Translations under genes and position numbers: made by a program
Shown: in pieces, positions 5,413 through 27,274 of the stretch
How the letters are laid out: each line of letters opens with the position of its first letter
How positions within the stretch are numbered: position 1 is the stretch's first letter
Source: a virus
Strand: one strand, 5' to 3'
IMG/VR virus record: IMGVR_UViG_3300032242_001916
Span: 1 to 64,000 of that record
Length of the DNA stretch: 64,000 bases
Notes under the pieces: generated by a model
The model's database searches: none
The model's input: only the letters and a program-made list of their open reading frames with translations
What the model was told of the DNA's origin: nothing

Positions 5413-5792
5413 TGCCAAATACTCCAGACGGTAGATATGATACAACTAAGCCATGGCAAAATAAACCTGGCATGGTTCGAGATGATGAAGCAGATCCCTA
5501 TAATCTTAGGTACGACTACTTAGGTCCTCATGGTAGTAGGGATGAAGCTGTTATCTCCCAGGCTATTGCCTCGGTAACTACCCCAGCACAGTTTCTGCAG
5601 GACATTGTGCGACCTCCTTTACCACAAGTTCAGTTATTTAGGTCTAGATTTGGGTATAGGTCACGTCAAATAGGTATTGCAGATATCATGGATGTTGACG
5701 AGATATATGCAGAGCCTAGAACAGATCTAAGCGGTGGCATAGGTGGATACGAAGGAACAAGCCGAAATTCCTCGGGGAATGCCTCATATTAA
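5412..5792 (+). CDS. hypothetical protein
   Basis: coupled TAATG start. Confidence 0.7.
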   Translation: MPNTPDGRYDTTKPWQNKPGMVRDDEADPYNLRYDYLGPHGSRDEAVISQAIASVTTPAQFLQDIVRPPLPQVQLFRSRFGYRSRQIGIADIMDVDEIYAEPRTDLSGGIGGYEGTSRNSSGNASY

Positions 5793-5801
5793 GGAGAACT
5801 A

Positions 5802-6224
5802 ATGGGTAGCTTTCAAGATGCTGTCAATTCCGAACTAAGACGGCGTAAGGGTTTGGGCAATTGCCCTACCTGTGGATACACCATGTACCCTTCAACTGAG
5901 CCTGTAAAAAATGAAGGCGGAAAAGTAACCGTTCCACCACCAGTTTGTGAAAACCCAAAGTGTGGCGACAACAGCACGGCTAATAAAATGTCACTTGCCA
6001 TAAGATTAATCAAAGAACGCGCAGCAAAAGACCCTTCAGTAGTAATCCATCATATTGACGATGATTGTTCAGCTGGTCTTTGTGAGCCCGGAGTTGGAAT
6101 ACAGGGTAAACCCGGCAATACTGTGGTTCATATTGATCAAAGGACCGCTGAGGAAAGAGACCCCAGCAGTCGTAAACACATCCCTAAACCATTGAATTCA
6201 ACCCATGTCTTCTTCGATAAGTAA
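5802..6224 (+). CDS. Zn-ribbon hypothetical protein
   Basis: CPTCG...CENPKC; AAGGAG RBS. Confidence 0.7.
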   Translation: MGSFQDAVNSELRRRKGLGNCPTCGYTMYPSTEPVKNEGGKVTVPPPVCENPKCGDNSTANKMSLAIRLIKERAAKDPSVVIHHIDDDCSAGLCEPGVGIQGKPGNTVVHIDQRTAEERDPSSRKHIPKPLNSTHVFFDK

Positions 6225-22855: not shown

Positions 22856-24289
22856 CTAGATGTTGAAGATAGTTGGAGCAGTAACAGTATTAGTATTACT
22901 TGTCGGGCCGCCGACAAAATTATTTGTATCTGTTACTACGGGCGCTGTTGCATCTTCTACAACAGCTGTCTCAGCTTGCACAATATCAATGCCAAAATCA
23001 GGCTTGAGATTGTACTCGTGAGTTTGGAACACGAGACGTACAGATGCTTGCTCTTCGTAAGCAAAGTGAGCAATGAAGTTCTCAACTGCAAATTCATAGC
23101 CGAGTTCCTGTACTAAATCACCAAACTCAATCAACATGTTGGTTGCAATTGGTGTCTCGTACTGTCCCTTTGCTGCCTCAGTACGAAGCTGCTTAGCAAG
23201 TGCTAATAAGTTCTTAGACTTGACAAGTTTAGCCTCGACCTTATCATCGTAATCCCATTGGATTTGAATACCAAAGCGGTTACGCATTGCAGCATTTAGA
23301 CCAGCAGTGCCGATGTAATCTGGATTCATCGTGGCAAAGATAGTTAAGTCTGGATGCGCATGCACTACCTCACCCTTGTGGTCAAGCAGCGTGATCATAC
23401 GCTGACCAGTTAGCAATGTGAACAGAACGGTGTAAATCTTAGGTGAGATAAAGTTAAGCTCATCTAAGTTGAGTGCACCGCCATTACGTACAACATCAGT
23501 AACTGGGCCGTCAATCCATACAAAGTTACCTGCGCCTTCACTGATGATCTTACCGAACAAGTGACTAGGCTCAAGCGCAGCATTACCTGATACCTGAGCT
23601 AGACGCAAGCCGCGTGCAGCACACCATGCTTCGATTGATGTAGTCTTACCGGGACCGGTAGGACCGTAGATCAATACGTTACGATGATTAGCACGAGCAT
23701 TGTCAAAGATAGCAAAATCTTCCTTGCCACTGATTGTGCGGTGAACGTAACGTTCTGCAAGCTCAATCGGTGGGACAGATGCTAGTGAGAAGTGACCAGC
23801 AGGTTCTAGCTCAGGAGCCGTTGGGGCTACTGGAGCTGCAACTCTATTGATAACCGGTGGAGCAACAACAGCCATCTGACGACGACCATCAATTACTCGG
23901 GCATGCAATAAGTCAGAGCCACTAGATACGCTTGCAAATAGCTCGCAGATAACTTCAATAGGATCACTATTGCTTGGTAGTTCTGCGCTCTTATGTGCAT
24001 GTGTTGCCTTGGTGGTCAACACTGGTGAATAGCCCTTCTCACGAATTGCTTCTTCATCAGCATTGGTTACGTACACGCCAACTGGTTCTTTTGTAACCAA
24101 TTCGGTTGGGTCGATATCACCAATCACGCCATCAAGATCAGATTCAGTCCACTTATTGCGTGGACCTTTCTGACCGTCAGTTACTCGTGAGTAAAGGCGG
24201 ACATCATTACCAACTGGTACGATTAACACCTGGCGACGGTCATTACCCATCGATTCAGTGTAGGACTCGATAAAAACGGAAATACCCAT
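22856..24289 (-). CDS. MoxR/CbbQ/CobS-type AAA+ ATPase
   Basis: Walker A GPTGPGKT, Walker B LDE, ATMNPDY.GT..LN.A..NRF. Confidence 0.9.
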   Translation of the reverse strand: MGISVFIESYTESMGNDRRQVLIVPVGNDVRLYSRVTDGQKGPRNKWTESDLDGVIGDIDPTELVTKEPVGVYVTNADEEAIREKGYSPVLTTKATHAHKSAELPSNSDPIEVICELFASVSSGSDLLHARVIDGRRQMAVVAPPVINRVAAPVAPTAPELEPAGHFSLASVPPIELAERYVHRTISGKEDFAIFDNARANHRNVLIYGPTGPGKTTSIEAWCAARGLRLAQVSGNAALEPSHLFGKIISEGAGNFVWIDGPVTDVVRNGGALNLDELNFISPKIYTVLFTLLTGQRMITLLDHKGEVVHAHPDLTIFATMNPDYIGTAGLNAAMRNRFGIQIQWDYDDKVEAKLVKSKNLLALAKQLRTEAAKGQYETPIATNMLIEFGDLVQELGYEFAVENFIAHFAYEEQASVRLVFQTHEYNLKPDFGIDIVQAETAVVEDATAPVVTDTNNFVGGPTSNTNTVTAPTIFNI

Positions 24290-24740: not shown

Positions 24741-24893
24741 GCTTTGAGATGTAGTTATCTCCGAATTGAATTCCCGGTAGTATTGAAACATATGCTGCCA
24801 CCACCTACTGCCACTCTTGCCTCGCCATCACGGGGTTCTCATGCCATTGAGAACCTTGCGCTAGACTACGGTGAATGATACCAGAATAGAAGC
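24741..24893 (-). ncRNA. structured RNA candidate, possible third member of the ~160-nt family
   Basis: GUAGU/ACUAC stem, GGUUCUCA/UGAGAACC hairpin, GGCGAGGCAAGAGUGGCAG motif. Confidence 0.45.
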
Positions 24894-25295: not shown

Positions 25296-25343
25296 AGCGT
25301 CTCCTTGCTTAAACTATATACACACCGGTTGTGTAAATAGTAG

Positions 25344-25417
25344 TGGGGCGTGTGGGACTTGAACCCACGACGGGCAGATTATGAGTCTGCTGCTCTAACC
25401 AACTGAGCTAACGCCCC
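25344..25417 (-). tRNA. tRNA with CAU anticodon (Ile2-lysidine type or elongator Met)
   Basis: cloverleaf GGGGCGT..GCAGA-CTCATAA-TCTGC..GGTTCAAGTCC; no encoded CCA. Confidence 0.9.
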
Positions 25418-25420
25418 TAA

Positions 25421-25548
25421 CCCTACACGAAATGCTTCATAGTTGAGTTCATCACCGACAGTATGCATTGTGTAGGGATTTTACGTGGAAGTTTGGTATC
25501 GTGGTCGCCCGCAAGGGTTGGACAGTATTACCGGTTGTCACGTAAAAT
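25421..25548 (-). ncRNA. two abutting stem-closed RNA elements
   Basis: CCCTACAC/GTGTAGGG (25421-25477) and ATTTTACGTG/CACGTAAAAT (25478-25548). Confidence 0.5.
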
Positions 25549-25553
25549 TTTGT

Positions 25554-25856
25554 TTAATCAACCCACGACAAAGTAAGAGGTTGATCTAAGTCGTATACAA
25601 CCTCGTTTTCGTGGTATTTGCGAAGCTCTATCTTGCTACCACGATCAATGATCGAGTAGAGAGAAGGTTCAGCATCTGGATCAATTAGTCTCAGCGCAGC
25701 ACGTAATCCATGTGATGTACCGCGGTGATAATCAGACAAGCCTAGGCTTGCATCTTCAAACTCAGCCAAGTCAGCCAACTCAATGAGTCCAACTAACCGG
25801 TCTGAAATCTTTTTGATCTTGAGCTTCTTGAGCTTCTTATTGGATTTTTTACCCAA
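25554..25856 (-). CDS. hypothetical protein
   Basis: GGAGG RBS, TTG start. Confidence 0.65.
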   Translation of the reverse strand: MGKKSNKKLKKLKIKKISDRLVGLIELADLAEFEDASLGLSDYHRGTSHGLRAALRLIDPDAEPSLYSIIDRGSKIELRKYHENEVVYDLDQPLTLSWVD

Positions 25857-25857
25857 T

Positions 25858-25938
25858 TTACTTACCTCCCTTTTTCTTAGGTTCGACTGGTCGTCTTTTA
25901 TTGGCGACCACTAACGATAGGACAATCTTTTTGTCCAT
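25858..25938 (-). CDS. 26-aa basic microprotein (MDKKIVLSLVVANKRRPVEPKKKGGK)
   Basis: AAGGGG RBS, fills the gap, not in the ORF track. Confidence 0.45.
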   Translation of the reverse strand: MDKKIVLSLVVANKRRPVEPKKKGGK

Positions 25939-26057
25939 AAGCACCCCTTTACTATGCTAGTGAGCAGTTTATACACATGCTCAGGTGTTACCTATACTTC
26001 GACATCCTTTGGTGATAGGTAACCAGTCAGTCTTTTATAGTCATCCTTAGGACTATG

Positions 26058-26216
26058 CTTATTAAGTGCGGAATCGATTGGTACTTTCGCGCCCCGTCCG
26101 ACGTTGGGTTGGGTTTTTACGGCCAACCTGCAACTCTAACTCGCCTATTCATCATCATGGTATACCTAGTAAACTTTCACAACTAGTAGTGACACCGGTG
26201 ATCGCTCTCCTATAAG
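26058..26216 (-). ncRNA. ~160-nt structured RNA, copy B
   Basis: CUUAUAGGAGAGCGAU...CGAUUCCGCACUUAAUAAG; homologous to copy A. Confidence 0.7.
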
Positions 26217-26255
26217 CAAAACTAATGAGCCAGTTTATAGTCATGGCTCAGGACT

Positions 26256-26423
26256 CTTATTAGGAACGGAATCGTTGTAGGCTTTCGACGTAGCCGGGCA
26301 CGTTGTGGAGGGTAAAACCATTGCACATATACCACGGTCTAGCTACTTGCTCGCGTTTCCAGCATGCTCGTTGTTAGTTTTACCCGTAAGAACAGAGGCA
26401 CTACGTAATCGCTCCCCTATAAG
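26256..26423 (-). ncRNA. ~168-nt structured RNA, copy A
   Basis: CUUAUAGGGGAGCGAU...CGAUUCCGUUCCUAAUAAG. Confidence 0.7.
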
Positions 26424-26471
26424 TCTGTGCAGTTTAGAGACATGCAGGTCATCAGCTTTTGATTACTTGAG

Positions 26472-26568
26472 CGCCTAATCAAGTTGCCTCCGTTATTTAT
26501 ACTCGCTGAGGCTCATGCCCTAGCATTTGTACGAGTCTTCTACCGTTCGACATTGCGGCTACTAGGCG
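26472..26568 (-). ncRNA. pseudoknotted RNA candidate
   Basis: CGCCUA/UAGGCG closing stem; ACUCG/CGAGU followed by AUAAAUA; GCCUC/GAGGC. Confidence 0.45.
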
Positions 26569-26574
26569 AAGTTT

Positions 26575-26802
26575 TTAATGTATTTTGTTATAGTTTGTAT
26601 ATTTAATTGGGGTTGGATTAGTTTCATCAATCATAATCAAACTATTACCATTACGAAGTAAGTCCATAGTTGGACCATCAAGCCACGTAAGGTCTTCAAT
26701 TGGCACGTAATGTTCCTTATCCCACTTAGCAGCGTACCTTTTGCTGGTAGTGTAACGGAATACACGGTAATTGATTTTTATCTTAAAAAGGAAATCTTTC
26801 AT
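26575..26802 (-). CDS. hypothetical protein
   Basis: GGAGG RBS. Confidence 0.6.
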   Translation of the reverse strand: MKDFLFKIKINYRVFRYTTSKRYAAKWDKEHYVPIEDLTWLDGPTMDLLRNGNSLIMIDETNPTPIKYTNYNKIH

Positions 26803-27274
26803 TAGTCCTCCAACTGTTTTAGTAGTTTTTCTTTTCTGTCACAAATTACATCGTGCAAAGGGTAAAATACCCACACGAATGGTCGTCGCCACCAAATGGT
26901 ATACCACTTGTATTTGTTATACAGTCTGCATAGCAAGGGCGTCTTCCGTATCATCACTTACCTCCTAGTAACATTTGCACTTCTTTTTAGTGCAACCCTC
27001 ATAAATGTATGCGAAGCACTGTTCTTGCCTCCATTTATGGGAGAGTTTAAATAAAAACTCTTCAATGTTAGGCAAAGTAGTGTTGTTAAACTCCACAACT
27101 TTGACATAGAACCAAAAAACAATTTTGTAGAGCCACATAATTTAGTCCCCCAACTGTTCGTTGATCCATTGCTTATTTTCACGACGCTCACGACGGTGAG
27201 TGCGCTTCTTTATTTTCTTTATTTCACCAGATCTCCAGATGAACATGTTACGCCATTTGGTGTAAGCATCCTGC

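Follow-up and report, generated by a model that had tools for sequence, protein, structure and literature searches.

A previously uncatalogued, clade-restricted family of structured phage RNAs within a pseudoknot-punctuated non-coding array

IMG/VR virus record IMGVR_UViG_3300032242_001916, an uncultured freshwater phage of 94,100 bp with direct terminal repeats, carries two structured RNAs of about 160 nt in tandem on its minus strand. Here we analysed bases 1-64000 of this record (43% GC), referred to below as the window. Copy A (168 nt) occupies 26256-26423 and copy B (159 nt) occupies 26058-26216, both in a gap of about 720 nt that is free of open reading frames (ORFs; 25857-26574) surrounded by small leftward genes that form one block and are regarded as early. 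The two copies are anciently diverged members, types A and B, of a previously uncatalogued structured-RNA family, which is confined to a small clade of uncultured freshwater phages and lies in a non-coding array punctuated by pseudoknots. A preliminary description of the window had noted the paired structured repeats and proposed a new RNA class. We confirm the observation, and the proposal holds on three counts: the absence of a match in Rfam 15, homologs in other phages, and compensatory base changes.

Both copies carry the boxes listed in that description, reading CUUAUAGG-N-GAGCGAU...CAUG...GCGAG...CAACGU, then 12 nt (A) or 11 nt (B), then CGAAAG-(7 nt)-CGAUUCCG-NN-C-N-UAAUAAG. The 5' box has two exact matches in the window, and the 3' box pattern occurs twice against an expected 0.14. 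Pairing of the two ends, as described, is borne out by CUUAU/AUAAG followed by G(G/A)GAGCG/CG(UU/CA)C(C/U)U, and the next stem is likewise present and covarying, with GUAG-U-GC/GCCUAC in A and GGUGU/GUACC in B. Only the terminal boxes, the (A/G)UAG box and CGAA(A) are kept across the 15 family members; CAUG, GCGAG and CAACGU are common mainly to copies A and B here and to the near-twin of this genome, locus L183.

Lake metagenomes and IMG/VR supplied twelve further members at 11 additional loci, along with one mini form of 69 nt without the interior (L132:6036-6104). The mini form aside, members range from 153 to 175 nt. An nhmmer search over 33 loci encoding relatives of the AAA-ATPase of this phage yielded one homolog each in L131 and L137, and a two-box pattern scan of the metagenome collection gave 12 matches, comprising nine new loci, L131 and L137 again, and one chance match. 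L183, among the newly found loci, carries the same A and B tandem. Four members are of type A (window A, L183A, L175, and L173) and ten of type B (window B, L183B, L131, L172, L178, L137, L180, L174, L179, and L177). R1, a covariance model trained on nothing but five type-B sequences from other phages, recovers every member, including copy B at 67.6 bits (E 2.4e-14), copy A at 34.8 bits (E 4.8e-6), and the mini form at 31.2 bits.

The preliminary description had not recognized a known RNA family, which agrees with our search of Rfam 15 (4227 models): neither copy has a match at the gathering threshold or at E <= 10, and only tRNA matches were reported in 25300-26900. Using blastn, the gap (751 nt) matched nothing in 50,697 phage records. 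In IMG/VR, the pattern CGAAAG-N7-CGATTCCG gave 120 matches, all by chance. All nine matches to CAACGT...CGAAAG...CGATTCC were also chance, and a search with the 3' box pattern returned just the two known contigs and chance matches. A pattern scan of cellular genomes (185,579 species genomes) produced three chance matches, none with a model match. R1 itself matched only three of 33 related phage records and, among 100 further phage loci that bear the pseudoknot described below, only the L132 contig. A candidate third copy at 24741-24893 in the window was rejected, as the family model did not match it even with all filters off.

All members, the mini form included, share the same closing stem. 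It begins with an invariant P1a (CUUAU/AUAAG), followed by an AG/A internal loop, a 7-bp P1b, a UC bulge and P1c, AU(C/U)/GAU. P1b is usually GGGGAGCG/CGUUCCU; in copy B it is GGAGAGCG/CGCACUU and in the mini form GAAAAACG/CGUUUUU, where three pairs are changed with pairing kept, two of them on both sides. Counted with P2, these helices reach 20-21 bp, broken up by two loops and a bulge. P1 is formed in A by a 5' strand at 26407-26423 and a 3' strand at 26256-26273, and in B by 26200-26216 and 26058-26075. P2 differs by type, with GUAG-U-GC/G(C/U)CUAC in type A (26398-26404 with 26277-26282 in copy A) and a GGGAG(U)/(G)UUCCC-like stem in type B (26192-26196 with 26080-26084 in copy B). The CGAA(A) box adjoins the 3' strand of P2 on its 5' side and, as CGAAAG, lies at 26084-26089 in copy B. 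The most constrained part of the family is the bulged stem of about 35 nt that joins both ends, an arrangement often seen where a stem acts as a handle for a protein or as a processing site.

Within this frame the two types diverge. The type-A interior contains a hairpin, UGCUC/GAGCA, with a conserved 20-nt loop (in copy A, UGUUC at 26390-26394 with GAGCA at 26365-26369) and a second, variable hairpin. In type B, the usual P4 stem is AAUCUAU/AUAGAUU; L178 has AGUCUGU/ACAGACU instead, and in L131 and L172 the stem is longer and GC-rich. The P4 hairpin of copy B starts near 26182-26187. P4 is followed by GGUAUACC and then an (A/G)UAGG box. GGUAUACC is an exact 8-nt palindrome in an unpaired stretch, present in nine of the ten type-B members (26159-26166 in copy B) and lost in L172. 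The second domain of type B consists of a P5 helix that encloses P6, for which we found the variants GCUUGG/CCAAGC, CAUAGA/UCUAUG, GUUAG/CUAAC, GCCGG/CCGGC, and GGUUGG/CCAACC, the last of these in copy B (26123-26128 with 26107-26112). Since R1 scores on type A (35-43 bits) barely exceed that of the mini form (31 bits), the A and B interiors share little beyond the scaffold and the (A/G)UAG and CGAAAG boxes. The picture of a conserved scaffold with a variable interior, as first described, is accurate and extends beyond that description: type A, type B, and the mini form have little in common beyond the closing stem.

The loop-loop pairing proposed at the outset is present in both copies, with a 9-bp complementarity in A (GGGUAAAAC at 26377-26385 with GUUUUACCC at 26310-26318) and a 5-bp pair in B (UUUAC/GUAAA), but it is not a family-wide feature. 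In type A, the complementarity is lineage-specific: L175 has 6 bp of it, and L173 and L183A have none. Its type-B counterpart was observed in the window and L183 alone.

Comparison among the members indicates that the fold is very probably a genuine, selected RNA structure on the minus strand. In a model-fitted alignment (A7), 91.3% of cells pair, and compensatory changes occur at 20 of the 44 pairs; shuffles gave 8.6 +/- 2.0 (none of 500 reached the observed count) and slid controls 3-6. Because fitting biases this count, we repeated it on plain MAFFT alignments. There, P1 and P2 are 96% paired compared with 39-53% when slid, two-sided changes occur at four pairs in P2 and P1b/P1c, and P4 shows two double changes from A-U to G-C. 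P4 through P6 covary in type B. The strand follows from P1b, where two positions form G-U pairs in 12-13 of the 15 members; on the other strand these would become C-A mismatches. No frame is open across the members, with stop codons in nearly all frames, and neither the differences in member length nor the indels are multiples of three. Judged by its sequences, the family is non-coding, without a conserved reading frame.

Several aspects of this evidence weigh on the other side. The main covariation count rests on the model-fitted alignment. Most of P1 is invariant, so most of its pairs are uninformative, and P3 (CCUAC/GUAGG) is weakly supported, its end pairs being mismatched in about half of the members. 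Covariation events are few because the family is small and closely related, with approximately 12 distinct lake sequences. Minimum free energies are also no better than those of shuffles (z = +0.63 for A and +0.94 for B), so the support is comparative and not thermodynamic, and a single genome would not prove the structure.

Each of the 15 members is followed, within 0-3 nt, by a 4-bp hairpin and an AUAA(A)(A/C) spacer. In nine of the 15, a further 3' strand pairs with the hairpin loop to form an H-type pseudoknot. Both of its stems covary, stem 1 as AGUC/GACU, AGAC/GUCU, AUGUC/GACAU, and ACAC/GUGU, and stem 2 as GAGCCA/UGGCUC, GAGCA/UGCUC, and GAGCACCC/GGGGGCUC. In the window, the pseudoknot directly after A (26226-26255, minus strand as for all elements of the array) reads AGUC-CU-GAGCCA-U-GACU-AUAAAC-UGGCUC(A). 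It is separated from B by a U-rich spacer, UUAGUUUUG (26217-26225), which with its preceding stem looks like a terminator by sequence; a terminator scan flagged nothing at the array under a rule that takes loops of 3-8 nt, the loop of this stem being 11 nt. A shorter pseudoknot, UGAC-CU-GCA-U-GUCU-CUAAAC-UGCA, lies 4 nt upstream of A (26428-26451). After B there is a degenerate version (26023-26054) that keeps hairpin 1, AGUC and GACU around CUAAGGAU, and an AUAAAA spacer, with no partner for stem 2. This is followed by a 9-bp hairpin, GGUUACCUAU...AUAGGUAAC (25987-26024), whose loop repeats AAGGAUG, and then by a canonical pseudoknot, ACAC-CU-GAGCA-U-GUGU-AUAAAC-UGCUC(A), at 25961-25988. The module of degenerate knot and hairpin (25987-26054) also follows the RNA in L137, L174, L175, L179, and L183. 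We observed that the loops of both elements show AAGGAUG(A/U)C, which is Shine-Dalgarno-like.

The knots flanking A and B conform to an uncatalogued class, NNNC-CU-stem 2-U-GN'N'N'-NUAAAC-stem 2', with covarying stem 1. Searching IMG/VR for a 21-base pattern of the knot returned at least 120 contigs (loci L195-L314) that carry the form NNNC-CU-GAGCA-U-GN'N'N'-NUAAAC-UGCUC. Among the matches listed, contigs span 4-183 kb, a locus has up to five copies (L251), and most copies of the knot separate a stop codon from the ribosome-binding site that follows. In the matches read, the triplet before the pattern pairs with the internal triplet through Watson-Crick pairs, with one G-U position. The knot family is far wider than the 160-nt RNA. 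A generic pseudoknot finder performed no better than on shuffles. The preQ1-I aptamer has an H-type topology with an A-rich third loop, and the phage knot resembles it in both respects; however, the Rfam 15 search with the knot alone, in a library that should include preQ1-I, gave no match. There is a real but partial likeness to coremin, or xrRNA-C, of plant and fungal RNA viruses (GUCCGAAGACGUUAAACUAC), in which a 4-bp hairpin is followed by a UUAAAC-containing spacer and a second helix (PMC10520033). The phage knot also has a 4-bp hairpin, (A/U)UAAAC and then stem 2, but its 8-nt loop pairs with the 3' strand and it has no YGAD loop. Within the 160-nt family, this widespread knot flanks non-coding RNAs and not genes, which helps to tell apart 3'-end protection, 5'-end protection, and cleavage marking.

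The array is also modular. Type A alone (L175 and L173) and type B alone (L180, L137, L174, L177, and L179) sit behind the same upstream Zn-ribbon gene, so the two types act as alternative occupants of one slot. Contigs of relatives from other lake samples lack one unit (201 nt, B plus knot), have the A interior replaced by 119 unrelated letters between conserved ends, or have the upstream module X replaced or missing. These structural variants indicate that the array is modular and exchanged among phages. The array opens with another conserved non-coding module, RNA X (26452-26574), found also at L137:5185-5290 and L132:6200-6335. It consists of the stems CUUCGCC/GGUAGAAG and ACUCG/CGAGU with variable loops, and a pseudoknot always comes next. 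Where it stands with respect to the 160-nt RNA varies from phage to phage, L137 and L132 departing from the window. In L132, an AT-rich relative, approximately 380 nt of ORF-free, GC-richer sequence (5651-6035) lies ahead of the mini RNA.

Our preferred model, suggested by anatomy, is that A and B are trans-acting stable small RNAs with a conserved handle and exchangeable cargo; it is tentative and falls somewhat short of an even chance. We favor stable small RNAs released from the early transcript because of the constrained bulged end stem, the covarying and exchangeable interior, and the very stable knots on both sides. The array (module X, knot, A, knot, B, knots) would share a transcript with the genes on either side and with the nearby tRNA-Met. 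With their ends defined and shielded by the closing stems and the adjoining pseudoknots, the modules would persist as stable small RNAs. The invariant P1 handle could then serve as a docking or processing site for one constant protein of host or phage, and the exchangeable interior (type A, B, or mini) would carry the specific activity, most probably the binding or titration of a host factor in trans. Y RNAs and YrlA RNAs, which work with Ro60 (Rsr) and are found in actinobacteria and some of their phages, offer a similar layout, in which a long conserved bulged end stem serves as protein handle and is joined to a variable second module. The phage RNAs share the small size, the stem, and the variable second module, but they have no Rfam match and no tRNA-like module, and the phage has no detectable TROVE-domain gene. 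A narrower version is unlikely though worth stating, namely a modular phage ribonucleoprotein RNA in which a dedicated protein would read P1, the swapped cargos at a fixed slot might act, for example, as decoys, each one neutralizing its own host-defense or RNA-binding factor, and the knots would be nuclease-proof end caps that make stable small RNAs out of mRNA pieces.

Two further considerations tell against a trans-acting role. The position is accounted for just as well if the element works solely in cis, in the processing or stability of mRNA. No partner protein came to light, and profile searches of the whole phage found no RNase III, TROVE, or RtcB; a nearby 652-aa VWA protein is CobT-like, without a TROVE signal. 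A 100-aa protein with a basic N-terminus is encoded downstream of the array (25554-25856, minus strand) and conserved in L132, L137, and the other RNA-bearing loci. It accompanies the RNA in all nine loci long enough to judge, the distant L132 included, and tblastn found no match to it in approximately 28 related loci without the RNA. A further relative, L189, has the protein, and the RNA was not found in the 946 nt available upstream. This co-occurrence may reflect shared ancestry only. The protein has no Pfam or PHROG family and no Atlas lead, and its predicted helical hairpin matches no solved fold.

The cis alternative holds that P1 and P2, about 20 bp with loops, form a double-strand-specific processing site which, with the knots, cuts and insulates the polycistronic early transcript and protects neighboring messages. 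This is the main alternative, somewhat less probable than the trans-acting reading. The modules lie between genes of one operon, near a tRNA that itself needs processing, and always adjoin a pseudoknot that in other phages stands by itself, with a stop codon before it and a ribosome-binding site after it. The mini form keeps the stem only, and no promoter of its own was found for the array, a sigma-70 scan giving fewer sites than in shuffles. Precedents exist in rRNA precursors and in T7 early mRNA, where RNase III sites consist of flanks that pair over some two helical turns, internal loops included, and recur between early-operon genes. Compared by structure alone, the phage RNAs look similar, in that their paired ends would span some two turns, broken by internal loops, enclose a structured interior, and recur between genes, but their stem is nearly invariant in sequence and their interior is conserved and covarying. 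RNase III sites do not usually need near-invariant sequence, and a processing stem needs no interior of at least 100 nt with covarying P4-P6 and conserved single-stranded boxes such as GGUAUACC, (A/G)UAG, and CGAAA. No RNase III gene was found in the phage, though the host probably has one. Phage T4 species 1 and 2 (rnaC/rnaD), of about 120-140 nt, are co-transcribed and processed with the phage tRNAs. They invite comparison, by description only, as small phage RNAs near a tRNA: here a tRNA-Met gene (25343-25417) lies on the same strand about 640 nt downstream of the gap. The blastn search of the gap showed no similarity in the phage collection.

Of the remaining explanations, self-assembly into dimers or rings by loop-loop contacts, with type B using the GGUAUACC palindrome and type A its 9-bp complementarity, is improbable. 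It would account for the unpaired palindrome in nine of ten type-B members, the 9-bp and 6-bp loop complementarity of two type-A members, and the multi-helix junction closed by a bulged stem of both ends. The pRNA of the phi29 family (RF00044) is an early phage RNA of about 120-174 nt that ends in a bulged helix and has a multi-helix junction with loops able to pair; like it, the large phage-associated RNAs ROOL and GOLLD are reported to form dimers or rings via loop-loop contacts. The likeness covers size range, end helix, junction, and loops, but no pRNA model matches, and loop complementarity is not conserved across the 160-nt family. The palindrome is lost in L172 and the complementarity is absent from L183A and L173. 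The RNA is also not near packaging genes, two types stand in tandem, and the genome is 94 kb with direct terminal repeats rather than about 20 kb and protein-primed as in phi29. A dimeric protein might just as well bind at the palindrome. Slightly less probable still are tandem riboswitch-like aptamers, in which metabolite sensing would regulate the small genes downstream by way of the hairpin or pseudoknot that comes next. A P1-closed multi-stem architecture, a U-rich run trailing the following stem in A and L131, and a position like a 5' untranslated region in L131, L172, L177, and L180 would fit such elements. Here, though, the closing stem is most conserved, and the junctions differ between A and B and are absent from the mini form, the reverse of a riboswitch; moreover, most members have no U tract after the knot and the downstream genes differ among loci.

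We regard two further readings as the least probable of all. The preliminary description had suggested an aptamer or ribozyme, or a scaffold with guide-like segments, and the conserved scaffold, variable interior, and tandem arrays would indeed suit a ribozyme that cleaves itself or the RNA subunit of a guided enzyme whose guides are the variable segments. Neither suggestion found support: types A and B do not share a conserved junction core, no model of a ribozyme or riboswitch matches, and complementarity to the phage genome extends to 12 nt at most, compared with 11-15 nt for shuffles. The variable parts are base-paired helices, not open loops. Known RNA-guided partners were also missing, since reverse transcriptase (PF00078), IS110 recombinase (PF01548), and TnpB (PF07282) were not found in the phage; these are the cognate enzymes looked for as partners of retron msr-msd or other reverse-transcriptase-associated RNAs, of IS110 bridge RNAs, and of TnpB/IscB omega RNAs. 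The other reading is that there is no functional RNA, only a decaying DNA duplication or a recombination cassette whose ends serve as homology. Conserved flanks around a replaceable interior, the gain and loss of units in relatives, and the narrowness of the family do look like modular recombination. However, the conserved ends are complementary and covary in the mini form and copy B, and the interior helices covary. The decay envisaged as a refutation is not borne out, with both types kept as single copies in other phages and the A and B tandem kept in L183.

The structured RNAs of phages have been charted far less thoroughly than their proteins, and several of these RNAs, including pRNA, Y-like RNAs, and anti-CRISPR RNAs, proved mechanistically important. 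The family described here is small and comes from uncultured phages, but it presents a clean, testable case, with an invariant stem of about 35 nt as bait, two natural interior alleles, and a natural minimal form.

Other candidate features of the array were considered and set aside. A hammerhead at CUGAUGA upstream of A has no downstream GAAA and no hammerhead stems, and resemblances to the 16S rRNA 3' end and to RNase P RNA are not borne out by any model match. The element CTTATAGGGGAG resembles positions -4 to +6 of the T7 promoter. We rejected this reading because the upstream 12 nt are not conserved, no T7-type RNA polymerase was found, and pairing with the 3' end explains the conservation. 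The polymerase search itself, which had no match in the phage, is uninformative since its control likewise matched nowhere.

By its AAA-ATPase, the phage is closest among cultured relatives to 83-93-kb actinophages of Brevibacterium and Gordonia, at approximately 44-46% identity. The canonical pseudoknot at 25961-25988 ends about 20 nt before a 26-aa ORF rich in lysine and arginine (25859-25939, minus strand), which is conserved in L132 and L137 and has no family or fold match. On the other side of the array, residues 38-69 of a 75-aa ORF (26575-26802, minus strand) resemble 23429-23527 inside the AAA-ATPase gene region. A similar stretch occurs in the AAA-ATPase region of nearly all relatives, and this ORF may be a duplicated gene fragment.

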